From contig JAWLEN010000005.1 of the NCBI GenBank assembly GCA_041686095.1, positions 1 to 50,051 of the forward strand: a stretch of 50,051 nt of DNA, in the 5' to 3' direction. The notes beneath the pieces were generated by a model. The model saw only the letters and a program-made list of their open reading frames with translations. It was not told the origin of the DNA and ran no database searches. Positions 15,586-34,615 of the stretch are shown one piece after another (the first letter of the stretch is position 1; each line of letters starts with the position of its first letter). Made by a program: the position numbers and the translations under genes. The DNA is from Candidatus Aminicenantes bacterium (GTDB lineage: Bacteria; Acidobacteriota; Aminicenantia; Aminicenantales; Aminicenantaceae).

Positions 15586-17211
15586 CTATTTCCTTAATCC
15601 TAAGGATGTCATAAAATCTTTCATTCTTTTCAATAATGATTTTCTATTGCAGCTGTCCCTTATATCCTTTTCTGATAACTCTATGATCTTTCTGAGAAAA
15701 TTTTGGTTCTTTTTATTCCTTGCACTCACTATGTCTGCTATGATTTCATTTAACTCCGGATTTTGGGATAATAAAAGGGCGAAGTCCTCAGCTTTGATCT
15801 CCAGCAGCACAGTTTCCTGTTCAATAACACCGGTGGCAGTCCTGGGCATTCCAGTAAAAAGGGACATCTCTCCAAATATGTCCCCTGGATTTATATAAAA
15901 TTCCGACTCATACTTCTTCCCTTTTTCTTCACAAGTCACAATTCCCTTGATCCTTCCTGACACCACGACGTAGCAGCTTTCTCCTTTATCCCCCTGTTTG
16001 AATAAGATTTCCCCTGGAGAATAGGTCTGCTTTCTCACTAAAGAGGCTAATTTTTTTATTTCATCTTCAGATAAAATCATCTTTCCAGCTTGTTCTCCCT
16101 CTTGATATCTTAAAAAAGAAGAATGAATCAAGGATTGAAATATACTCTCTTCTTTTTGTTGTTGTTCTGGAATCTCTTCTCTTTTTGCTTGGGCTAGATA
16201 TTTGAAAACATGCTGGACTTTATCGCTCAATGGAACTGGGATTTCGATCCCGGCTCTTCGAAATTTATACCATATTAACCTTCCTACTTTCCCCAACACA
16301 TGATACTTTTTACTAAAATCAGTTATCCAAAACTTCAAGACATAAGAGATGCCAAAATCTTCATAGCCTTTTACAAAAACCTCGGGGGATGGATCACGGG
16401 TAACTTCAGGCATATCTAAAGCAGCTTTCTTGAGCGCTTCCATAACGGCCATAGAAGGAGATCCATAACTTACTTTTACGGGCACAGTCAGCGCAGTCCT
16501 GCTGTCAGGGCGAGAATAATTGACAAGAACCTCAGAAGCGATTGAATTATTGGGAATAACCACAATATTGGAATAAAAATCTTTTATCCTTGTTTCTCTC
16601 CAGTTGGTATCAATGACCAGCCCTTCTTTATCTCCGCTTTTTATCCAATCTCCCTTGCTGAAAGATTTGGAAAAGTGTATAGACATTCCAGAAATGATAT
16701 TCCCCAGCAGCTCCTGAAGGGCTAATCCTAAAATCATAGTGAGGATAGCAGAAGTCGCCAGAAGCGGAGTTACGTCAACACCAGCCACTCCTTTTAAAAC
16801 TATGAATAAAACCACTAAATAAAGGACAAAAAGTAAAAAACGGTGGAGCACCCGGGGGAGGGGAAAAGTTTTTTTTCGGTTCACATAACTTGTCACCCAT
16901 GATGCATCAATCAATCTGATCACTAAGAAAAAGAAGAAAAACAGTACGGCTGTATCCAAATATTTTTTAAAATCAGGATTTAATTGAAGAATTTGAATCA
17001 AATTGATTGTTCTGACAAATAAAACCGCAGTGAGAAACGCTAAGGGAAAAATGATTTTAGAAAAAAATATTCCTGACTTTTTCCCTTTTAACTGAAAAGT
17101 TTTTTTATCTATATACCGGAAAAGAAGGTAAAGAATAAGTCCTAAACAAAAAGTTAATAAAACCAGGAATGCCTCTACAATGCCGCTTCCTATTAAATCC
17201 TGTTGTGACAT
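15586..17211 (-). CDS. MscS-family mechanosensitive channel with C-terminal cNMP-binding domain
   Basis: ILGLALQELLGNIISG, FSKGDWI, WRETRI, VIPNN; FKQGDKGESCYVVVSG...FGEMSL...PRTAT. Confidence 0.92.
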   Translation of the reverse strand: MSQQDLIGSGIVEAFLVLLTFCLGLILYLLFRYIDKKTFQLKGKKSGIFFSKIIFPLAFLTAVLFVRTINLIQILQLNPDFKKYLDTAVLFFFFFLVIRLIDASWVTSYVNRKKTFPLPRVLHRFLLFVLYLVVLFIVLKGVAGVDVTPLLATSAILTMILGLALQELLGNIISGMSIHFSKSFSKGDWIKSGDKEGLVIDTNWRETRIKDFYSNIVVIPNNSIASEVLVNYSRPDSRTALTVPVKVSYGSPSMAVMEALKKAALDMPEVTRDPSPEVFVKGYEDFGISYVLKFWITDFSKKYHVLGKVGRLIWYKFRRAGIEIPVPLSDKVQHVFKYLAQAKREEIPEQQQKEESIFQSLIHSSFLRYQEGEQAGKMILSEDEIKKLASLVRKQTYSPGEILFKQGDKGESCYVVVSGRIKGIVTCEEKGKKYESEFYINPGDIFGEMSLFTGMPRTATGVIEQETVLLEIKAEDFALLLSQNPELNEIIADIVSARNKKNQNFLRKIIELSEKDIRDSCNRKSLLKRMKDFMTSLGLRK

Positions 17212-17231
17212 GTTTTTTAAATCTTATTAAT

Positions 17232-18050
17232 TTACAGTCTTATGGTTAATCCTTCCTTAGCACCATATGTTTCTCGGAATTTCTTCTGAGCATTGTTTAT
17301 TATCATACCAATCTTTTCATCCGAATGAGAAGGATTAAAATGAGAAAGATACAATTTTTTCACACCAGCCTGTTCAGCGACTCGCGTACCCTCCAGCCAC
17401 GTGCTGTGACCCCATCCTCTTTTGCCCTGACTGTATTCTTCGGGGGTGAAGGTTGAATCATAAACAAAAATATCTGCTTTCTTGGCAAACGCAACCAAAG
17501 GCCTATCCACTCCTTTTTCAGGATGTTCGGTATCTGTGGCAAAAACCGCGCTTTTTCCTTTTTCATGAAATCTGTAGGCTAATGAACCTTGAGGATGGTG
17601 GAGCGGAACATGAGAAATTCGGATATCCCCAATATTGAAATCTCCTGAGGGAACCTGTTTAAAATTTTTTTTAGATTCAGTTTCATTGAAATCAACTGGA
17701 AAAAATCTTCCTCCCATTACCATCCTCAATGTTTTTTGGGTCTCCTCTGGTCTCAAGGCAGAATAAAATGTTATCTCAACATTTTTAGAAAAAAGAGGAG
17801 CAAAAAATAGAATCCCCAAAGTATGATCTATATGAAAATGAGTCAAAATAAGATGAATATGAAATTTTATCTTGCTTTTTTCTTTCGTCAGCCTCTCCCC
17901 CAAGGGAATGATCCCTGTTCCAGCATCAAGAATAATGAGGTTCTCTTCTGACGAAATAATTGAAGCGCATGGAGTATGGCCTCCATATTCAACCATATTT
18001 TTCCCGCACACAGGTGCAGAGCCCCTGACTCCCCAAAAAGTAATTTCCAT
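17232..18050 (-). CDS. MBL-fold metallohydrolase, putative cyclic-nucleotide phosphodiesterase
   Basis: FWGVRGS, YGGHTPC, LDAGTG, THFHIDH, HPQG, TDTEH, GWGHS, SHFNP. Confidence 0.85.
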   Translation of the reverse strand: MEITFWGVRGSAPVCGKNMVEYGGHTPCASIISSEENLIILDAGTGIIPLGERLTKEKSKIKFHIHLILTHFHIDHTLGILFFAPLFSKNVEITFYSALRPEETQKTLRMVMGGRFFPVDFNETESKKNFKQVPSGDFNIGDIRISHVPLHHPQGSLAYRFHEKGKSAVFATDTEHPEKGVDRPLVAFAKKADIFVYDSTFTPEEYSQGKRGWGHSTWLEGTRVAEQAGVKKLYLSHFNPSHSDEKIGMIINNAQKKFRETYGAKEGLTIRL

Positions 18051-18063
18051 TAGTGCTTTTCCT

Positions 18064-20196
18064 TTATTTTATTCTCAAATCAAAGACTCCATCCCAATGT
18101 AAAGGAGGAGGACTTTTTTCAAATTCCATACATCTTTCAACGTATAATCCAGCTAAATCATCTCCCTTTATATTTTGAAATAAGGCCTTTGCGTTCTTCC
18201 ATTCCCTGTTTTTATAAAGGATAAGTGCCTCTTGAAAATCAGAAACCAATTTCATTTGGGAATCATCCATTTTGTCTTTTTCAGCAATGATCTCAAAGAC
18301 CTTCACCGGCCTGCTTTTTCCCACCACTCTAATCACATCCACTTCCCTGGTCAATATCTTGTCTCTAATTTGATGAAAGGTTTCCTCACCTATGAGTATA
18401 GAGACTCTATACTGTTTACACGCTCCTTCCAGCCTGGAGGCAAGATTGACAGTATCTCCTATAGCGGTGTAATCAAACCGCCTGCGTGATCCCATATTCC
18501 CCACTACTGCAGGCCCGGTGTTGATTCCAATCCTCATAAATAATTCATGTCCATATTGAGACTTTAGATGGCTTCTCATCTTCTTCAGATTTTTTTGACA
18601 GCCCAAAGCTGCCCGACAAGCATTGTAAGCATGATTCTCCTGCTCAAGAGGTGCATTCCAGAATGCAATGATGGCATCTCCCTCATATTTATCCAAAGTT
18701 CCTTGATAACTGAGAATGATATCGCTCATTTCTGAAAGATATAGATTCAGGAGCTCGACCAGTTCTTCAGGAGACAATCCTTCAGATATGGAAGTGAACC
18801 CTTTTATATCTGTAAAAAAAGAAGTTATTTCCCTTTTGTCCCCTCCCAGTTTTAAAAGGCCTGGGTCATCGACAATCATATCAATGAGGGACGGAGAAAG
18901 ATAAAACCGGAATACATTTTTTATAAAACGGCGCTGTCTGCCTTCTAGACTGTAATTCAAAAGAGCCGCGCCTAAAAAAGCAATGAGCACAGCAAATTCA
19001 GGAGCGACAAATTCCAACCAATAACCTGAAAAGAAAAAAACAATAGAGGCCACCGCAGGAAGAGCTAAACAAACAATAAAAAAAAGACTGATGACCCAAG
19101 GTCTTTTTAAAAGTGAAACGCCCACTCCAGTAAAAAGAGTGAAAAACAGAATAAAAAACAAAACCACTGGTTTCCCAGGAAAAGAAATAAAATCCTTGTT
19201 TAAAATATTATTAAGAAGTGTCGCCTGAACCTCTACACCAGGATACACAGAACTAAAAGGAGTGGATCTAAGGTCAAAAATCCCGGGAGCACTGGACCCG
19301 ATGAATACCGCTTTTCCCTCAAATTCGCCCGGGGGAATCTGGGGATCCAGCCCCTCATTTATCTGGGCCCACGAATTGATAATGGAAGCGACTGAATAGG
19401 TCGGATAAGTTCCCTGCGGACCATAATATTTTATAACCATCTGGCCTGAATCATCTAAAGGAATTTTCCTGTTTTCTAACCAGATGCTCCGGTTATCTTT
19501 GGCATGTATTTTCCCACAGCTGACAAACTCTGAAACCTCTAAAGGAAGCGCAGGTATGGTCATCTCCTCATAAGAAAAAAGAAGGGGTATACGGCGGTAT
19601 ATCCCATCTTCATCCGGAGAAAATCTTACATTCCCAACTCCTCTTAACCCAGGAAGAAGCTCTTTGACTGGAAGAGTGACAGAGTTCATCTGATAAACAG
19701 GATCAGTGCCTTTCTCTGACAATTCCCATGTGAACGGCTTTAAAACATCTGGATCTAATTCCATAAACTCATCTTGCTTCTGGCTTAAGAATACTGGCAG
19801 GAAAACATTTCCCGCCTCCTTTATAGACGAAGCAAAAACAAGGTCATCTTGGACTCCATATAATGAGGATTCAGAAAAAATCAAATCAAAACAGATGGCT
19901 TTGGCTCCCCCTTGGTGCAGGTAATTCACCAAGTAGGAATAAAATTCTCTGGGCCAGGGCCAAGGAAGCCCCTGCTGTTTTTCATACACATCCAGGCTGT
20001 ACTGATCAATGAGAAAAAGTACGATATCTTTATCTGCTTGAGAAGCCTCTGAAAAAAGCCTGAGTCTTAGATCCCATGATTTCCATTCAAGGGACTGAAA
20101 AAGCTGAAACTCATGAAGCAGAAAAATCAAAAAAAATGAGGCCAAACCAATAAGGGTCCCCCTGAAAATTTTTCCTTTTATATTGAATCGGCCCAA
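18064..20196 (-). CDS. CHASE2-domain class III adenylate cyclase
   Basis: CHASE2 motifs (IDQYSL, WPWPR, FDLIFSE, DEDGIYRR, GVEVQA), 3 TM, FTDIKGFT, DKYEGDA, RIGINTG, YTAIGDTVNLASRLE, VVGK. Confidence 0.93.
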   Translation of the reverse strand: MGRFNIKGKIFRGTLIGLASFFLIFLLHEFQLFQSLEWKSWDLRLRLFSEASQADKDIVLFLIDQYSLDVYEKQQGLPWPWPREFYSYLVNYLHQGGAKAICFDLIFSESSLYGVQDDLVFASSIKEAGNVFLPVFLSQKQDEFMELDPDVLKPFTWELSEKGTDPVYQMNSVTLPVKELLPGLRGVGNVRFSPDEDGIYRRIPLLFSYEEMTIPALPLEVSEFVSCGKIHAKDNRSIWLENRKIPLDDSGQMVIKYYGPQGTYPTYSVASIINSWAQINEGLDPQIPPGEFEGKAVFIGSSAPGIFDLRSTPFSSVYPGVEVQATLLNNILNKDFISFPGKPVVLFFILFFTLFTGVGVSLLKRPWVISLFFIVCLALPAVASIVFFFSGYWLEFVAPEFAVLIAFLGAALLNYSLEGRQRRFIKNVFRFYLSPSLIDMIVDDPGLLKLGGDKREITSFFTDIKGFTSISEGLSPEELVELLNLYLSEMSDIILSYQGTLDKYEGDAIIAFWNAPLEQENHAYNACRAALGCQKNLKKMRSHLKSQYGHELFMRIGINTGPAVVGNMGSRRRFDYTAIGDTVNLASRLEGACKQYRVSILIGEETFHQIRDKILTREVDVIRVVGKSRPVKVFEIIAEKDKMDDSQMKLVSDFQEALILYKNREWKNAKALFQNIKGDDLAGLYVERCMEFEKSPPPLHWDGVFDLRIK

Positions 20197-23894: not shown

Positions 23895-24965
23895 TTAATC
23901 AGGAAAATGCAAATGAAAAGAAGCAAGCATTTCTTTGAGGTCCAGGTATTCAATTTGAGATGTTTCTGAGTTAAAATACTTTAGATATAATTTCCCGTCC
24001 CTTTCAACAAAACCGTACATATCCAAAACATACTCGCCCAAAACATTTTTATCTATTTTTTTTGGAATAAAGGTATTATATAACACATACTCAGTCTCAA
24101 CCCGACCCTTACTCTCCTTAGGCATCTTAATACAAATAAGCCACTGGTTGTCTTGGGTAGAATTGATTATCTGAAAAACAGCTTCATTATCTCTGTCAAT
24201 CTCCACTCCCGAAGCCTTATCTGTATCCATTAATACCGCGCTCTCATCTTGGCTTAAGTAAATGGCATTCACAGATTGAATTTCTTTTTCTGTTTCTATC
24301 TCAGAAATACAGGTGACATCTGTTTCTGATCCTTTGTACACACCCTGAATCTCCAGTCTTAAGATATAATGGACCGCATCCGCCGGGCTTCCGATCTCTG
24401 TGGCTTTTTCTCTTTGATAACTGTCAACAACGCTCTCTTTGAATTCTCTCAGTCCTGTCCATGATAAGGGGAAATTTAAAACCTGTTCATCTTGAGTGTC
24501 CTGAAGCTCTATGACATATTCTTTTTCATATCTCACAGCATAATATTGCACCGCTATTTCAGAGACATGCGCTTCAGGACTGATCCCCACATAAAAGCTG
24601 ACTCTCATCTGCTTAACTCTGTTATAATTATAGAACGACTCATCACTGCTTGCGAACCCATTTATGATATTTAAAGTTCTGGTGTTTTCTGGTATCTTGA
24701 AAAACAAGGCTTCTCCTATTCCATCCCCGGGCATTCCTTCAGCCCAGCATGTAGCCCTGTCCCCATCAAACATCCTGACCCCTGAAAAAATTCCAGGATT
24801 AAAAGGATCGGGCTCAGGATTCTCATGTTCTGATGTGACTTGATACAAAACATTATTTTGCCAAGAATAAAGAATTATCTGCTCCCATTGGACGGCTGAA
24901 GAGTATAGACAGACAAGAGAAAACAAAATAGAAAACAAAACAGATGCTTTCATTGTTCTTTTCAT
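23895..24965 (-). CDS. Secreted protein with discoidin/glycan-binding-like domain
   Basis: Start at 24965 after GAGG; signal peptide; MFDGDRATCWAEG..GDGIGE, IINGF, NRVK, DVTCISEI. Confidence 0.7.
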   Translation of the reverse strand: MKRTMKASVLFSILFSLVCLYSSAVQWEQIILYSWQNNVLYQVTSEHENPEPDPFNPGIFSGVRMFDGDRATCWAEGMPGDGIGEALFFKIPENTRTLNIINGFASSDESFYNYNRVKQMRVSFYVGISPEAHVSEIAVQYYAVRYEKEYVIELQDTQDEQVLNFPLSWTGLREFKESVVDSYQREKATEIGSPADAVHYILRLEIQGVYKGSETDVTCISEIETEKEIQSVNAIYLSQDESAVLMDTDKASGVEIDRDNEAVFQIINSTQDNQWLICIKMPKESKGRVETEYVLYNTFIPKKIDKNVLGEYVLDMYGFVERDGKLYLKYFNSETSQIEYLDLKEMLASFHLHFPD

Positions 24966-24990
24966 CTTTAACCTCTCTTCTAAACTTTGC

Positions 24991-27525
24991 TTAACTCGAT
25001 AATTCTTTGGACTGCATCCCGCTGTTTTGAGCATATGTCTTAGCCACTTCAATGAAGTGCTCTACTACCTCAGGATCAAACTGTTCCCCTGATTTATTGA
25101 CAATTTCTTTAACCGCATAATTATGGGAATTGGCTTTTCGGTAAGGACGCTCTGAAGTGATGGCGTCATAGGTATCCGCTATAGCCATGATCCGGGAACC
25201 AATGGGGATTTCCAAACTTTTCAATCCATCTGGATAGCCTTTCCCATCATACCTCTCATGGTGGTGTCTTATGACTTTAGCTACCTTATTCAATTCCACC
25301 ACAGGTTTGAGTATTTTCTCTCCATGAATCGGATGCTGTTGGATAATAAGGATTTCTTCTTTTGTTAATTTATCTTTTTTGTGAAGTATCTTTTCAGGAA
25401 CAGCGATTTTCCCTATATCATGAAGTATGGTGGCTACCTCCAGATCTTTTTGCTCTCTCTCGTTTAGGCCCATCTTCTCGGCGATCTTTAAAGAAATTTC
25501 AGTCACTCGAGCAGAATGAGCACGGGTATACTCATCTTTAGCTTCCAGAGCAGAGACCAAAGACTTAGTCATAGCCACAAACAGGGACCTCTGCCGCTCA
25601 GCAAGGTCACTGGTTCTCATTTTAAGATTTCGATTGGCCAGTGCTAAGTCTGCCTCTGCCTTCCTCATCCTGAGCTGAGAACGGATTCTGGCTTTTAATT
25701 CTGTGGAATCAAACGGCTTGCTTATGTAATCATCAGCACCGGAGTCAATACCTTCGGCCAACATTTCCGCCCCAGTTCGGGCAGTTACCAGAATCACCGG
25801 AGTGTGTTTGAGATTTTCATCTTCTTTGACTTTTTTGCAAAACATATGCCCATTCATTCCGGGCATCATAACATCGCACAGAACAAGGTCGGACATCTTT
25901 TCTGAAATAACTTTTAATCCCTCTTCAGCAGATACACACAGGTCTAAGTCATATTCATCCTGAAGAATTAACTCCATAAGCTTTAACACTTCTGGATTAT
26001 CATCAATAACCAAAAGCCTGTATTCATGCCCGCCTCCGGTTGACTTGGCTTTTTTCGGCATATCCATCTGTTCAATATCAATGAGCTGAAGTTTTTTAAA
26101 GTCTGTGACAATATCCTGCACTTTGGGATGTTCGGTGTCAGTGGCTCTCTTTTTTAGAGCCACTGGTTTATCTTCCTCTCTCCGGTCAATCACATCCCTA
26201 GTGTAATGACTGTCTCCCTTTCTCAACTCGACAATAAACCGGGAGCCTCTACCCAATTCGCTTTGGGCTTTTATTTTACCGCTGTGCAGTTTTACGATCT
26301 CATAAGCCAGTGAAAGACCGATTCCTGTTCCTGCGTGCTGACGGGAAAGGGATCCATCAATCTGAGAAAACCGGTCAAATATATTGGCCAATTTATCCTT
26401 AGGCATGCCGATACCTGTATCTTCCACTGTCAAAACAATTCGGTTATCTGTTTCCTCCAAATAAACAGTGATTCTTCCACCTTCATTGGTGAATTTAACC
26501 GCATTGGACAGCAGATTTAAAATGACTTTTTCAAAATGGTCCGGATCTATAGTGACTTCCATTTTGTGGGGAGGATGCTGGAAATAGAGAGTGATTTTTT
26601 TCTGATCAGCCAAGGGTTTGACCGAAGAAAGAAGAGAATTGATATACTCGACAAAATCTATACTTTTGATTTTAAGCCTCATCTGACCTTCTTCTAATTT
26701 TGTCAGGTCCAAAAGGTTGTTAATGAGCTTGAGAAGCTTTAATCCATTCTTTTTCAGGGTTACCAGTGCATCTCTCTGTTTTGGAGTAATCCGGCCCATC
26801 TTGCCATCTATAATTGGATTTAATGGAGCCAGCATCAAAGTCAAAGGAGTGCGCAGCTCATGATTGACGTTAGCAAAAAACTGGGTTTTTAGTTCATCTA
26901 GGCTTTTGAGCTTTATGTTTGATTCCCTCAGTTTCTTGGAGGTCTCTTCCAGTCTGATAAGACTTCTCAAACCCCGGCGTCTAATGGTGTCCATTACATA
27001 GGAGGCAAATCCTCCGATGATAATGATTGAGCTGAGAAAAAATATATTATTAAACATGATCCTCCAGTCAAGCTTTTCCAATTGGATCATCACCAAACTG
27101 GGAACCACATAACTGGCCCATACCACTGAGGAGACAATCAAAGCTTCCCGGGTGGTGAAAGGAAGAAGAGCCATCATACACATGATAATCAGGGTCAGCC
27201 CCTGGTAATAGCTGCTCATAAATCCGCCCATGATCTGTATCATGATGGCAATGCCAAAAGCGTCGATAATGAGAAGAGCCATTCCCAAAGTTAAAAGGCT
27301 GCGGATAGAGTGAGCTTTACGGTGGAGAATTAACAGAACCGCGTTTAAAATAATCACCACCAGCCGGATGATCAAAAATTCAATAATATATTCAGGAGTG
27401 TAAATGAGGTCTAAGATCAGAAAACCCGGATAAAATACCATGCTGAGAATGATAGACAGTTTGACTCTGCCCCGCAGGTCATATTCCTTAAAATACCTTT
27501 TCAAAAATTCCTTACTTTCGCTCAT
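24991..27525 (-). CDS. 6TM hybrid histidine kinase-REC-HD-GYP phosphodiesterase
   Basis: Six TM helices; FFANVNHELRTPL, NLLSNAVKFT, DTGIG, GTGIGL; REC IDDN..CDVMMP..TAR..KPF; HSARV, LHDIGK, HHERYDGKGYP, ADTYDA, RPYR. Confidence 0.93.
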   Translation of the reverse strand: MSESKEFLKRYFKEYDLRGRVKLSIILSMVFYPGFLILDLIYTPEYIIEFLIIRLVVIILNAVLLILHRKAHSIRSLLTLGMALLIIDAFGIAIMIQIMGGFMSSYYQGLTLIIMCMMALLPFTTREALIVSSVVWASYVVPSLVMIQLEKLDWRIMFNNIFFLSSIIIIGGFASYVMDTIRRRGLRSLIRLEETSKKLRESNIKLKSLDELKTQFFANVNHELRTPLTLMLAPLNPIIDGKMGRITPKQRDALVTLKKNGLKLLKLINNLLDLTKLEEGQMRLKIKSIDFVEYINSLLSSVKPLADQKKITLYFQHPPHKMEVTIDPDHFEKVILNLLSNAVKFTNEGGRITVYLEETDNRIVLTVEDTGIGMPKDKLANIFDRFSQIDGSLSRQHAGTGIGLSLAYEIVKLHSGKIKAQSELGRGSRFIVELRKGDSHYTRDVIDRREEDKPVALKKRATDTEHPKVQDIVTDFKKLQLIDIEQMDMPKKAKSTGGGHEYRLLVIDDNPEVLKLMELILQDEYDLDLCVSAEEGLKVISEKMSDLVLCDVMMPGMNGHMFCKKVKEDENLKHTPVILVTARTGAEMLAEGIDSGADDYISKPFDSTELKARIRSQLRMRKAEADLALANRNLKMRTSDLAERQRSLFVAMTKSLVSALEAKDEYTRAHSARVTEISLKIAEKMGLNEREQKDLEVATILHDIGKIAVPEKILHKKDKLTKEEILIIQQHPIHGEKILKPVVELNKVAKVIRHHHERYDGKGYPDGLKSLEIPIGSRIMAIADTYDAITSERPYRKANSHNYAVKEIVNKSGEQFDPEVVEHFIEVAKTYAQNSGMQSKELSS

Positions 27526-30500
27526 TTTTCTTGTCCTTTAGTGACCACACAAACATAACCCTGAGGAGGACTTCCAAAAGTCTCAACGGTGCGGACATGC
27601 TCAAAACCTGCTTGTTCCAACAGCTCATAAAGATGATCTAAATCAAAAAAGTCAAAAGTGCCTGCCTCTTCCAGCTCAACGAGAGCTTGGGCATCATTGA
27701 GAAAGGAACGTATGGAGTTCAGCACCAGCTGTTTTTCCCATTTCTCTGGAAAAGAATCATCGTCCATCTCCTCCACTTTTTTGACTAACCTGGTGAAAAG
27801 GCCTGAAGCATCCGCATCCGGACGAACACTGGATAAGATTAACAGTCCTCCTGGGCTTAAAATCCTGTTCAGCTCAATTAAAGTTTCTATTGGATTAAAA
27901 ATATAAGATAAAACAAGGCTCATCACTATTTTATTGAAGTATCCCTTCTTAAAAGGAAGATGCAGGCCTTTTTGCGTATCGTCTGAAAAGACCAGCTTTT
28001 TATAAGAAGGCTTCTCTTTTTCCAAGCCTAAAATATAACGGGATGCTTTATTGAAATCAACAATAGTTCTTAGTTCAGGAAGCTCAAACGTCTTTTTCAG
28101 CCGCTTCTTCTTTTCCGGTGTGATTTTTTCCCCGCGGAGGATTCGGTGCACACGAGGAGAGTAGCGCCTGTGTATCTTATTCGCTGACTGGATGGTTATA
28201 TTCTCAATTTTATCTACAAATTCCAAAAAATTGGCGACCTCTCCGTTTAAAAAACGAAGAATAGGTAAATATCGGTTCATTTCAATGTCACATCCGATGT
28301 AGTCAAGACGGATATTTTTTTGATCTGATTCAAGCTTTTGGCTCAGTTTCTGCTCGGCTTTATTTAATGCCTCCGGAACCAGATCAGCTACAATGATTTC
28401 CTTGGGCAAAGGCTGTTTCCCTTCTAAAATATAGAGAATAAAGTTCCCTGTCCCACCACCCAAATCAAGAACATGGTCCTCAACAGACAGCTCAAGAGCT
28501 TGGAGCTGATCCCTCATAAGCTCATCATAGTCATCAGCTAGAGTGAGTACATCAAAACCTAAGAGATCTTTCTCGCCGATAAGATATCGCCTCCAGTATT
28601 CATCTCGATCTTCCAAATTCCGACTCGGTAATCTGTCTTTTTCTGCATGACGTTTGAAAAAAAGGTTGTTTTTTCGAGGGACCACAGGTTTGATATGGCT
28701 CTGGTGAATGAAGCGGTATGAAAGAGCTGTGACAGCCGCAAACATCTGAAGAGCTTCCTTGGATGTTCGAGCGTTGTGACCAAGAGAGATGGGGATCACT
28801 TCCCTCATAGCATCAGCCTTAATCCCCATAATATCTCGAATGAATTCTGGCCTCACCCAATGATCATGTTCACCGTATATCCAGGTGACAGGGATGTCGA
28901 TCTCTTTTATGTCTTCTCGGGCTTGGTCAAGAGTGGCGATACGATTAGCCAATCCATCTTCCATGTACTTATCGACATTCACCAAATTTCCCAAAACTGG
29001 TCTGATTCCCAGCTCAATACCAAGCTGATGTTGTTCTAAAAGATCCAATCCACAATTAACACGGGTAAGGAGATGCCTGAGCTCAGGAGTCCCCATACAT
29101 GCGATCCAGTAATCAACCCGGCTTCTATAGGCTTTATCTCGAAGGACCAACCTCGCTTCCAAGGCAGCCAAAGAAAAGCTCACCAGTATGACTTTATCAG
29201 CCTTTATGATAGGATTATTATCAAGCCAGTCCAAAACAGCTTTGATGTCAGAAGCACCCTGGCTAAGAGAGGCATTAACCATTTCATAAGGAGGTTCAGA
29301 GGCTTCAAGGTCTTTATAGCTTTCTCCTTTCCTGCGGATTCCATCGAATCGAATAACCGCAGCGGACTGACCACAAAGATAGAAATTTTCAATAATAGTC
29401 TGGGACAACGCAAATAGGGTCTCTTTGGTCTTACCAAAAGCAGGGGGGATAATGATGACTGGAACGGGAGACCCGTCCAAAGGAAGAGAAATATCCAGCA
29501 ACCCCACAATCTCTTCACCTTTTTTGTTTTCCAGCCGGATGACTTGAGGCGGTTTTTTTGCTAATTCACCTAAATCAGAATGCCGGCGGGGTCCGGGACG
29601 GATAGCATCTGTGTCTTTAGTGGGCTTCCTCTCTTTCGGAACTTCAAACTCTGGAAGCTTGGCTGTATCAATGGAAAGGCGACCAATACCAAATTGGAGC
29701 CCATATCTAAATTGATTTTTCCCATTGGTTTTGATTCTTTTAATATTGCGTATTTCCCCCCTCGTTTCCCTGATAATCTTTTCTCCCCGCAATACTTTTA
29801 TTGACTCTATGGGAGTGCCGCTCAAAAGAGCCACATTTTCCTGCTTTGTGATGAAGCTGACTCCGCCTTCACTGATATCAGTTATGGTGCCTCTGATCAC
29901 TGAATCAAAGGGATAAGGAAGCTTAATCTCCAGCTCCAATTCTTCCTCTGGCTTTTCTCTATCCAGAGCTCTCTTTTCAGAATAAAACAAAATTTGGGGA
30001 TAAAGAACATCAATATAAGAGCCTTTTTCATCAATTCTATAAATGACTGTCTCAAAATTATAGGTTGCGTATCCAGATTGGAAGGAAACAAATATGCTTT
30101 CTGAAGTTTTGAATTTATTATCCAAGTCTTCACCAGATAATCGACAGTAATGCCAAGGATCTATATCAATCAGCTTGAGTGTAGATGGGAGCCGCGAAAA
30201 AGAAGGAATGGCTGTGATCTCTGATTTACTATTCATGGCTCTCTGAAGGAGTGATTCAATTTTCTTTTTATCCTTAAAAGGAATGATGGCGTCTACTTGC
30301 AAAAATGGATACCTGTCCTTAAGTTGAGAGACCTCTCCAATGGTGGCATACTGCATTATATGCCTGGCTAGGATTTGCCGGCTTTCTTCATCAATACCCA
30401 AAAAGCGAATCCCGACTCCTTTGTTTTCTTTATCTGAGTGCACCACATATCCGGCAAGCTCATGCTGAGTCCCGTCAGGAAGCTCAAGGATAAACGGCAT

Positions 30501-31055
30501 GACCCGGTCTTCAGGAAGCAGGGCTTTTACGAACATTCCATTTTCACTGATGTTTTCCACAGAGGCTGGGGAATGATAGTCCAGATGAGCCTGGATGCTT
30601 CCCTTATCAGCCACCTCCACCCGCATGCATTTTCTTTTTTCCTTTGATTTTTGTGCAAAAAGATAACAGAGTTTCCGTTTGACTTCCTCTGGATCAAAGG
30701 ACCGGTTGTAAAAATAGTCCAACTGCCCTCCATACATCCCGATGTAAGAGAGCTCTTTATCACTGGATTCTCCAATAAGCATCTTGATCATATTGTCTGG
30801 TTTGGGAATATTTTCGTTGACATGCCTTATAAAAACACCACTATCCATATTGGGAAGTGAGTGATCAACCACAATGGCATCAATCCGCTTGACTTCTTTG
30901 AGAAGCTGGATGGCTTCAACTCCGCTGTCAGTGGTGTAGACTTGGTATTCAGGCTCCAGACTCTGCCGCAGTCTTTCCCTTTTTTTCGGATCGCTGTTGA
31001 CCACTAAAACCACTGACTTCAAATGAGTGCTTTTCTGAAGTCCTTTTGAAGCCAT
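27522..31055 (-). CDS. Multidomain pseudoREC-PilZ-PilZN-PilZ-LuxD-like thioesterase-SAM methyltransferase
   Basis: RKCMR..NISENG and RALDR..DISEGG PilZ motifs; PPAFGK..IRFDG, VSFSLA, GEHDHWV, SLGHN hydrolase motifs; VLDLGGGTG, VADL, LPF..FNKIV..L..RILSPGG methyltransferase motifs. Confidence 0.85.
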   Translation of the reverse strand: MASKGLQKSTHLKSVVLVVNSDPKKRERLRQSLEPEYQVYTTDSGVEAIQLLKEVKRIDAIVVDHSLPNMDSGVFIRHVNENIPKPDNMIKMLIGESSDKELSYIGMYGGQLDYFYNRSFDPEEVKRKLCYLFAQKSKEKRKCMRVEVADKGSIQAHLDYHSPASVENISENGMFVKALLPEDRVMPFILELPDGTQHELAGYVVHSDKENKGVGIRFLGIDEESRQILARHIMQYATIGEVSQLKDRYPFLQVDAIIPFKDKKKIESLLQRAMNSKSEITAIPSFSRLPSTLKLIDIDPWHYCRLSGEDLDNKFKTSESIFVSFQSGYATYNFETVIYRIDEKGSYIDVLYPQILFYSEKRALDREKPEEELELEIKLPYPFDSVIRGTITDISEGGVSFITKQENVALLSGTPIESIKVLRGEKIIRETRGEIRNIKRIKTNGKNQFRYGLQFGIGRLSIDTAKLPEFEVPKERKPTKDTDAIRPGPRRHSDLGELAKKPPQVIRLENKKGEEIVGLLDISLPLDGSPVPVIIIPPAFGKTKETLFALSQTIIENFYLCGQSAAVIRFDGIRRKGESYKDLEASEPPYEMVNASLSQGASDIKAVLDWLDNNPIIKADKVILVSFSLAALEARLVLRDKAYRSRVDYWIACMGTPELRHLLTRVNCGLDLLEQHQLGIELGIRPVLGNLVNVDKYMEDGLANRIATLDQAREDIKEIDIPVTWIYGEHDHWVRPEFIRDIMGIKADAMREVIPISLGHNARTSKEALQMFAAVTALSYRFIHQSHIKPVVPRKNNLFFKRHAEKDRLPSRNLEDRDEYWRRYLIGEKDLLGFDVLTLADDYDELMRDQLQALELSVEDHVLDLGGGTGNFILYILEGKQPLPKEIIVADLVPEALNKAEQKLSQKLESDQKNIRLDYIGCDIEMNRYLPILRFLNGEVANFLEFVDKIENITIQSANKIHRRYSPRVHRILRGEKITPEKKKRLKKTFELPELRTIVDFNKASRYILGLEKEKPSYKKLVFSDDTQKGLHLPFKKGYFNKIVMSLVLSYIFNPIETLIELNRILSPGGLLILSSVRPDADASGLFTRLVKKVEEMDDDSFPEKWEKQLVLNSIRSFLNDAQALVELEEAGTFDFFDLDHLYELLEQAGFEHVRTVETFGSPPQGYVCVVTKGQEK

Positions 31056-31369: not shown

Positions 31370-34615
<3,246 letters not shown>

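Follow-up and report, generated by a model that had tools for sequence, protein, structure and literature searches.

A LuxD-like hydrolase joined to a methyltransferase and to putative c-di-GMP receptors in a Candidatus Aminicenantes bacterium

Introduction

What might a LuxD-like serine hydrolase accomplish when it is fused to an S-adenosylmethionine (SAM)-dependent methyltransferase and is encoded outside any lux operon? The question is raised by an open reading frame (ORF) on the reverse strand of a 50,051-nucleotide (nt) stretch of DNA from a Candidatus Aminicenantes bacterium (assembly GCA_041686095.1, contig JAWLEN010000005.1, positions 1 to 50,051), which was analysed over its full length and to which we refer as the window. 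An initial annotation of the window had described the two enzymatic domains at 27522-29560. The ORF had been chosen correctly, but those coordinates cover only the C-terminal ~678 of its 1177 amino acids (aa). The whole ORF, 1177 aa plus the stop codon, occupies 27522..31055 of the reverse strand and encodes, in order, a pseudo-receiver, a PilZ domain, a PilZN-PilZ pair, the LuxD-like hydrolase and the SAM methyltransferase. The earlier two-domain view was thus right about the hydrolase and the methyltransferase; it had overlooked the degenerate receiver, the PilZ domain and the PilZN-PilZ pair, and also the translational coupling of the gene to a second gene that encodes a kinase bearing REC and HD-GYP domains.

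On balance, we lean towards the view that the protein is an acyl hydrolase/methyltransferase gated by cyclic diguanylate (c-di-GMP), that it acts on a lipid-type substrate, and that a membrane kinase coupled to it sets the level of c-di-GMP through an HD-GYP domain. The PilZ sensors of the protein and the coupled kinase-REC-HD-GYP gene argue for a c-di-GMP effector enzyme as opposed to a stray metabolic fusion.

Results

The hydrolase domain and its likeness to LuxD

The LuxD-like alpha/beta-hydrolase domain (Acyl_transf_2) extends over aa ~503-800, which corresponds to 28656..29549 of the reverse strand, the strand on which all features of this ORF lie. Each of the motifs that had been compared with LuxD in the initial annotation is present in the ORF: VIIIPPAFGK at aa 533, VIRFDG at 567, GES at 577, ILVSFSLAA at 623, ACMGTPELRHLL at 652, IPVTWIYGEHDHWV at 721 and SLGHN at 757. 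Ser, Asp and His stand at positions 628, 731 and 760, respectively, with a spacing of 103/29 as claimed, and the nucleophile elbow reads S-F-S-L-A and is accordingly of the non-GxSxG kind that had been noted. The codons for the predicted nucleophile Ser628, the predicted triad acid Asp731 and the predicted triad base His760 are at 29172..29174, 28863..28865 and 28776..28778, respectively. Asp731 and His760 are invariant in all of 120 close relatives and in 79/79 more diverse sequences; position 628 holds Ser in 120/120 of the former and in 78 of the latter, the one remaining sequence having Cys.

Sequence searches relate this domain to the LuxD family over part of its length. The Pfam family PF02273 (Acyl_transf_2) matched aa 559-747 with an E-value of 1.3e-5 and 25.1 bits when the whole protein was searched, and with 28.5 bits for the domain alone (cut-off 20.3), the match being confined to positions 52-224 of the 294 in the profile. 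A single-sequence phmmer search against the sequences of the Protein Data Bank (PDB) gave a weak match (E 0.49) to 1tht, the LuxD protein of Vibrio harveyi, in which S628 is placed opposite residue 114 (Ser) and D731 opposite residue 211 (Asp). The LuxD residue numbers that had been given for Ser and Asp are therefore correct; His241, which we take to be the third member of the LuxD triad, lies beyond the aligned segment. When a family profile, prepared from an alignment of 79 diverse relatives, was used against the same PDB sequences, 1tht was matched with an E-value of 1.1e-6 and was the sole alpha/beta hydrolase among 49 matches.

The initial annotation had predicted that LuxD would be the best structural match, and two fold searches bore this out. 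When aa 500-829 were modelled with AlphaFold2 from the 79-sequence alignment, the model had a mean predicted local-distance difference test (pLDDT) score of 95.8. With this model as the query, Foldseek ranked 1tht first (E 5.2e-16; template-modelling (TM) scores 0.73/0.82), with feruloyl esterases and lipases at TM-scores of about 0.62/0.77. VIA-align, a search independent of Foldseek, also placed chain 1tht_B first among 48,161 chains (Z 30.9, 277 residues at 2.5 A), and the next chain had a Z of 26.1. In the model numbering, Ser628 is located between the strand at 120-128 and the helix at 131-140, Asp731 follows the strand at 224-229 and His760 follows the strand at 252-257; as modelled, these residues occupy the canonical strand-loop places of an alpha/beta-hydrolase triad. 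The likeness to LuxD goes beyond chance, although it is distant, and the protein is not a LuxD orthologue.

Neither LuxE (PF04443) nor LuxC (PF05893) was found in the host genome, which is 91% complete, in agreement with the earlier statement that the gene lies outside any lux operon; membership in a lux system was accordingly rejected. The same genome contains a second weak match to PF02273, of 21.7 bits and thus just over the cut-off, in a 254-aa ORF (G000:C146:8839-9123).

The methyltransferase domain and its packing against the hydrolase

The C-terminal domain, aa ~833-1177 (27525..28559), is, as had been proposed, a class I SAM-dependent methyltransferase with an insertion. Its SAM motifs are intact, and the insertion is large and helical. 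The Pfam models Methyltransf_23, 11, 31, 12 and 25 all scored above their cut-offs (Methyltransf_23, 51.9 bits vs 27; Methyltransf_11, 37.9 bits vs 21.2), the models together covering aa 844-1154. The motif I residues D864, G866, G868 and G870, and the acidic residue D891 at the end of strand 2, are conserved in 120/120 relatives.

The insertion had been put at ~100 aa. We find 110 aa between the motif II residue Asp923 and the LPF motif at 1033, and assignment of secondary structure by DSSP in a two-domain model located the insertion between strands 3 and 4, at aa ~924-1032 (27960..28286), with helices at model residues 431-509. Of 78 relatives, 51 have 83-136 aa between the positions of Asp923 and LPF and the other 27 have 5-12 aa, so the insertion is genuine and specific to certain clades. 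Possibly it serves as a substrate cap. The nearest sequences and the ESM Atlas clusters for this domain are generic class I enzymes that act on small molecules, with O, N or C acceptors, and for this reason the acceptor cannot be named.

The model of both catalytic domains (aa 500-1177) had a pLDDT of 95.2 and a predicted TM-score of 0.92, and in it the hydrolase and the methyltransferase are predicted to form one rigid unit with fixed packing. A Foldseek search with this model returned hydrolases only among the matches listed, and no structural neighbour of the methyltransferase. When a complex between the PilZN-PilZ pair (aa 283-470) and the catalytic unit (aa 500-1177) was predicted, the score was 0.00 against a mark of 0.32; this prediction was run without controls and is uninformative in either direction.

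The sensory domains

The N-terminal 500 of the 1177 aa are made up of sensory domains. Two stretches matched the Pfam PilZ model, for a total of 56.1 bits (cut-off 22.5). The first PilZ domain, aa ~138-236 (30348..30644), has its best stretch at 140-235 and carries RxxxR at 141-145 and NxSxxG at 168-173. The second stretch belongs to a YcgR-like PilZN-PilZ pair at aa ~283-470 (29646..30209), in which RxxxR is found at 362-366 and DxSxxG at 393-398, and in which the PilZN part comprises the ~80 aa ahead of the second PilZ. The four arginines R141, R145, R362 and R366 are conserved in 110/110 full-length orthologues, and the (D/N)xSxxG elements of both units are kept almost as well in the same set. 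Over both PilZN-PilZ subdomains, the family profile matches YcgR, MrkH, PP4397 and 3kyf with E-values of 5e-9 to 1.5e-7. Both PilZ units thus carry intact c-di-GMP motifs and, by these motifs, are predicted c-di-GMP receptors.

The segment from aa ~14 to 130 (30666..31016) resembles a receiver domain. It scored 29.3 bits with Pfam Response_reg in the whole protein, which is below the cut-off of 30.2, and 30.3 bits when the N-terminal piece was searched alone. The acid pocket is replaced by N20/S21. The phospho-acceptor position, residue 64, is Asp in the window's protein; among the 110 orthologues it is Asp in 33 and Asn in 42. As judged from these residues, the receiver is degenerate and probably no longer phosphorylated. 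The pseudo-receiver most often lacks the acceptor Asp despite the kinase gene that is always adjacent, and it is seemingly retained for another reason.

The partner kinase gene

The gene downstream of the enzyme gene, at 24991..27525 of the reverse strand, encodes an 844-aa protein in which Pfam recognizes HisKA, HATPase, REC and HD-GYP domains behind an N-terminus of about six transmembrane segments, nearly free of loops. Its start overlaps the enzyme stop codon (ATGA), and the two genes are translationally coupled. The REC domain matches Response_reg with 92.7 bits, and the HD-GYP domain matches HD_5 with 163.5 bits and is complete, having HD at 702, HHE at 755 and GYP at 763.

The pairing is a constant one, in that the kinase-REC-HD-GYP gene is immediately downstream in 9/9 orthologous loci (59-86% identity). 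The other neighbours in those loci are conserved only among close relatives.

Distribution of the family and the loci of sister clades

Close homologues of ~1180 aa share 57-89% identity with the window's protein over aa 500-1177 and, where a source is named, come from Aminicenantes or Acidobacteriota. Ten of 401 genomes sampled from the phylum, the window's own included, have a match to the family; all 10 belong to the window's order, within which the family was present in 9 of 17 other sampled genomes.

When the hydrolase domain was compared with 1.84 billion representative sequences, there were 457 matches at E <= 1e-3, of which 223 reached E <= 1e-30. Among the best 150 representatives, the hydrolase is followed by a methyltransferase in 144 and preceded by PilZN-PilZ in 134; all three are present in 130, and a receiver in 23. 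The exceptions among these 150 are short and may be fragments from contig ends. These counts indicate that the conserved core is PilZN-PilZ-hydrolase-methyltransferase, to which the window's clade adds the pseudo-receiver, the extra PilZ domain and the methyltransferase insertion.

A shorter form of ~835 aa is abundant: at least 551 clusters (at 90% identity) were found at E <= 1e-20, one of which is labelled Myxococcales and none of which has a functional name. We examined the gene order around this form in 80 metagenome loci, which are non-independent samples, and recovered the target ORF in 75; L035, L057, L077, L079 and L108 were left out, the target ORF not having been recovered by the ORF filter or clustering. 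In loci with at least 3 kb of downstream sequence, a histidine kinase is encoded on the same strand no more than 3 genes downstream in 27/30, and an MMPL/HAE3 transporter is present in 16/30. A LolA-like protein is encoded in 7 of the 42 loci that have at least 1.5 kb of upstream sequence. The kinase of the short-form loci is a homologue of the window's kinase, with which it shares 33% identity across 598 aa that take in part of the membrane region, and its C-terminus is a second HATPase domain instead of HD-GYP. A scan of the 80 loci with regular expressions found no HD-GYP and no EAL; the four 'GGDEF-like' strings that it returned, in ORFs of the MMPL cluster, were taken as chance matches.

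Other genes upstream of the 835-aa enzyme, in the same 42 loci, were a Trans_reg_C-AAA_16-TPR regulator in 24, a sigma-54 activator in 10 and a protein in which an AAA-type kinase domain is joined to a deoxycytidine monophosphate (dCMP)/cytidine deaminase domain in 11.

In both of the divergent Aminicenantales loci, L024 and L025, two further genes stand between the enzyme gene and the kinase-REC-HD-GYP gene. The first encodes an AMP-binding protein resembling fatty-acid-CoA ligases and the second a B12 radical-SAM protein whose nearest models are of hopanoid/lipid type; both fall below equivalog cut-offs. In L025 (G342:C11, 8045-17349), the enzyme is itself divided between overlapping ORFs for a PilZ-hydrolase of 662 aa and a methyltransferase of 461 aa, which could reflect either a natural split or a frameshift.

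Discussion

A proposed mechanism

We propose that the enzyme is cytoplasmic and that its two PilZ units, one of them in the YcgR-like PilZN-PilZ arrangement, would read c-di-GMP, such that the PilZ/receiver part would control the rigid two-domain catalytic unit; binding of c-di-GMP may either activate or inhibit it. The first catalytic domain would be a LuxD-type serine acyl hydrolase or acyltransferase acting on a fatty-acyl thioester or ester. An acyl-Ser628 intermediate would be formed, from which the acid would then be released. The methyltransferase would methylate the released product, most simply at its carboxylate, to give a neutral methyl-ester lipid; in an alternative order of events, the tethered acyl chain would be methylated ahead of its release. 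The co-translated membrane histidine kinase would act through its own receiver to drive the HD-GYP phosphodiesterase, and in consequence the level of c-di-GMP would fall in response to a cue from the envelope or from lipids, by which the enzyme would be reset.

Several of our observations weigh against this proposal. The likeness to LuxD amounts to 16-17% identity, and the NCBIfam LuxD equivalog NF052253, whose cut-off is 420 bits, gave a score of only 21.8. Feruloyl esterases and lipases are close behind LuxD by fold (Z 24-26), and they outrank 1tht by E-value in the Foldseek search with the two-domain model, where 1tht was fourth by E-value and yet had the highest query-normalised TM-score. 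PF02273 is precomputed for 60 of the 120 close relatives listed, and for none of the 120 listed for the 835-aa class. The domain also contains many invariant charged residues (K544, E545, R569, D571, D603, R635 and D671) that one would not readily expect in a plain fatty-acyl pocket. For the methyltransferase, the matches are only to generic small-molecule enzymes, which makes O-methylation of a carboxylate a guess. With respect to the substrate, no lipid genes were found in the window's own neighbourhood, and in the host genome there is no close homologue of the sister-clade ligase and the best match to the RND transporter is only 23% identical. The lipid context is therefore borrowed from the sister clades, the sole source of the link to lipid genes, and their loci are not independent of each other.

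Alternative explanations

The same domains could instead constitute a reversible methylation switch, a writer and an eraser in a single protein, with the partner kinase as a possible target or sensor of the mark. Such a switch would be served by an esterase-type hydrolase and a methyltransferase in one predicted rigid unit, and it would suit the signalling setting of the REC-like domain, the two PilZ units and the conserved kinase partner. There is precedent for contact between PilZ proteins and methylation enzymes in MapZ, which interacts with the methyltransferase CheR (10.1101/814665, in the part available to us), and the methylesterase RdmC (1q0z) is among the fold matches with a Z of 19.6. 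However, the closest fold, and the sole sequence-level relative in the PDB, is the acyl-carrier-protein (acyl-ACP) thioesterase/acyltransferase, ~11 Z units above RdmC, and in sister clades the enzyme gene has for company genes for a lipid exporter and for LolA-like, acyl-CoA-ligase-like and lipid-type radical-SAM proteins. Also, a fixed 1:1 unit of two activities that oppose each other would amount to a futile cycle unless they were reciprocally regulated, and we see no sign of such regulation here. We regard a switch of this kind as unlikely.

An acyl-transfer enzyme is a further alternative, in which the acyl group would be passed to an acceptor other than water (a lipid, a sugar or a protein) and the methyltransferase would act on a hydroxyl, amine or carbon of the acceptor or product to yield a modified envelope lipid or exopolymer. 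LuxD is itself capable of such a transfer, and PF02273 is named as an acyl transferase family. The nearest methyltransferases in the PDB span O, N and C acceptors and include phosphatidylethanolamine N-methyltransferase, MitM and LahSB; another near chain is titled cyclopropane-fatty-acyl-phospholipid synthase. Control of envelope and matrix production is a common role of c-di-GMP, and the MMPL and LolA-like neighbours would fit the export of an envelope lipid equally well. Yet neither an acceptor-binding domain nor a gene for glycosyl or lipid synthesis is a conserved neighbour of the gene in the window's clade. The present data do not separate transfer from hydrolysis; we nevertheless judge the transfer alternative, as a whole, to be improbable.

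A 'methyl-ester disguise' of the BioC/BioH type, in which the methyltransferase would cap a malonyl-thioester carboxyl and the hydrolase would later remove the methyl ester to give a dicarboxylate such as pimelate, is suggested by the esterase-BioC fusions that exist in biotin synthesis, by a weak match to the BioC model TIGR02072 (E 1.8e-6) and by the automatic name 'pimeloyl-ACP methyl ester carboxylesterase' that the Joint Genome Institute (JGI) gives to the hydrolase of relatives, but we reject it as most improbable, since the TIGR02072 match reaches 28 bits against a cut-off of 184.95, no BioB scores above its cut-off in the 91%-complete genome (best 40.5 bits vs 225), the fusion to a PilZ sensor and the pairing with a sensor kinase would be senseless for a cofactor pathway, and the name given by JGI is a COG label of a generic kind. 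The BioB result may itself reflect biotin auxotrophy or an assembly gap.

Comparison with known systems

Returning to the c-di-GMP-gated acyl hydrolase/methyltransferase that we favour, we can compare its parts with those of better known proteins. With LuxD, the myristoyl-ACP thioesterase/acyltransferase whose structure is 1tht, the first catalytic domain shares the alpha/beta-hydrolase fold including the cap, and a Ser, here the predicted nucleophile, in a non-GxSxG elbow, with Ser and Asp at aligned positions. It differs from LuxD in being part of a 1177-aa signalling protein, in its fusion to a methyltransferase and in its occurrence in a genome without detected luxC or luxE.

YcgR, MrkH and PP4397 have the two-domain PilZN-PilZ organization that is found here with intact RxxxR and DxSxxG elements. 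Those proteins are stand-alone adaptors or transcription factors, whereas the present module directly precedes an enzyme and, in the window's clade, is itself preceded by an extra PilZ domain and the pseudo-receiver.

Fusion of PilZ to a catalytic domain has parallels in the cellulose synthase BcsA and in Myxococcus PixB (PilZ-PilZ-acetyltransferase), the activities of which are thought to be controlled by c-di-GMP (10.1101/814665 and PMC8316039, respectively, in the parts available to us). The output in those two cases is different from the LuxD-like hydrolase and SAM methyltransferase described here. In the available parts of the same two papers, we found no pairing of a hydrolase or a methyltransferase with PilZ other than the passage on MapZ and CheR. 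A full-text search of the literature also yielded no description of the PilZN-PilZ-hydrolase-methyltransferase architecture, nor did the accessible main text, supplementary domain tables apart, of PilZ and HD-GYP surveys and of the Myxococcus PilZ study. Since the gating of enzymes by PilZ is already known from cases such as BcsA and PixB, what is novel in the present protein lies in the type of output.

The Rpf system of Xanthomonas (the signal synthase RpfF, the hybrid kinase RpfC and the REC-HD-GYP protein RpfG) resembles the present locus in that an enzyme of fatty-acid type stands beside a multi-transmembrane hybrid kinase and a REC-HD-GYP output. REC-HD-GYP is the defining architecture of the RpfG family (10.1101/2021.11.05.467447, in the part available to us). 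The partner gene of the window has this layout, REC followed by a full HD-GYP with HD, HHE and GYP. It departs from Rpf in combining kinase and REC-HD-GYP in one polypeptide; the enzyme, moreover, has PilZ sensors of its own, which would close the loop. RpfF is a crotonase, to which the present enzyme is unrelated. A methylated fatty-acid product has a precedent in Ralstonia, where the SAM methyltransferase PhcB makes 3-hydroxy fatty-acid methyl-ester signals; PhcB is not known to be fused to a hydrolase or to PilZ domains, and its likeness to the present enzyme lies in the kind of product proposed here.

A further step would be to regard the 2 genes as a self-contained lipid-signal circuit, in which a methylated fatty-acid signal would be made by the enzyme and sensed by the membrane kinase, REC-HD-GYP would lower c-di-GMP, and PilZ would provide the readout. 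We offer this only tentatively, as a possible extension of the mechanism above that we think rather doubtful. Were it true, signal synthesis and c-di-GMP would be joined in one feedback loop, comparable to Rpf and its diffusible signal factor (DSF) but assembled from unrelated parts, and the sister clades would add to it an export route of MMPL/LolA-like type.

To our knowledge, only a few c-di-GMP effectors have an enzymatic output, and chemistry of the acyl-hydrolase or methyltransferase kind is not known to be driven by any of them. The family described here is large, has the same core and a kinase partner across its clades, and includes no characterised member. Identification of its product would define a new class of output for c-di-GMP signalling; it might also bring to light, in uncultured Aminicenantes and in Myxococcota-like bacteria, a lipid signal or a modification of the envelope that is new.

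Other genes of the window

Following the kinase gene, an ORF at 23895-25052 (reverse strand) contains an NADase_transloc/discoidin-type glycan-binding domain, and its conservation is confined to close relatives. With the TTG that is listed as its start, it would overlap the kinase gene by 62 nt, and its true start is therefore probably located later.

Divergent from the enzyme gene, at 31370-34615 of the forward strand, is a gene for a LacZ-type GH2 beta-galactosidase of 1081 aa. Among the relatives, the closest two, L002 and L005, are alone in sharing the divergent arrangement; in L019, a homologue lies ~6 kb downstream of the enzyme.

Further away, at 15586-20196 of the reverse strand, three adjacent genes resemble a cyclic-nucleotide module. 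They encode an MscS-type channel with a C-terminal domain for the binding of cyclic nucleoside monophosphates (15586-17211), a protein of the metallo-beta-lactamase fold (17232-18050) and an adenylate/guanylate cyclase with CHASE2 (18064-20196).

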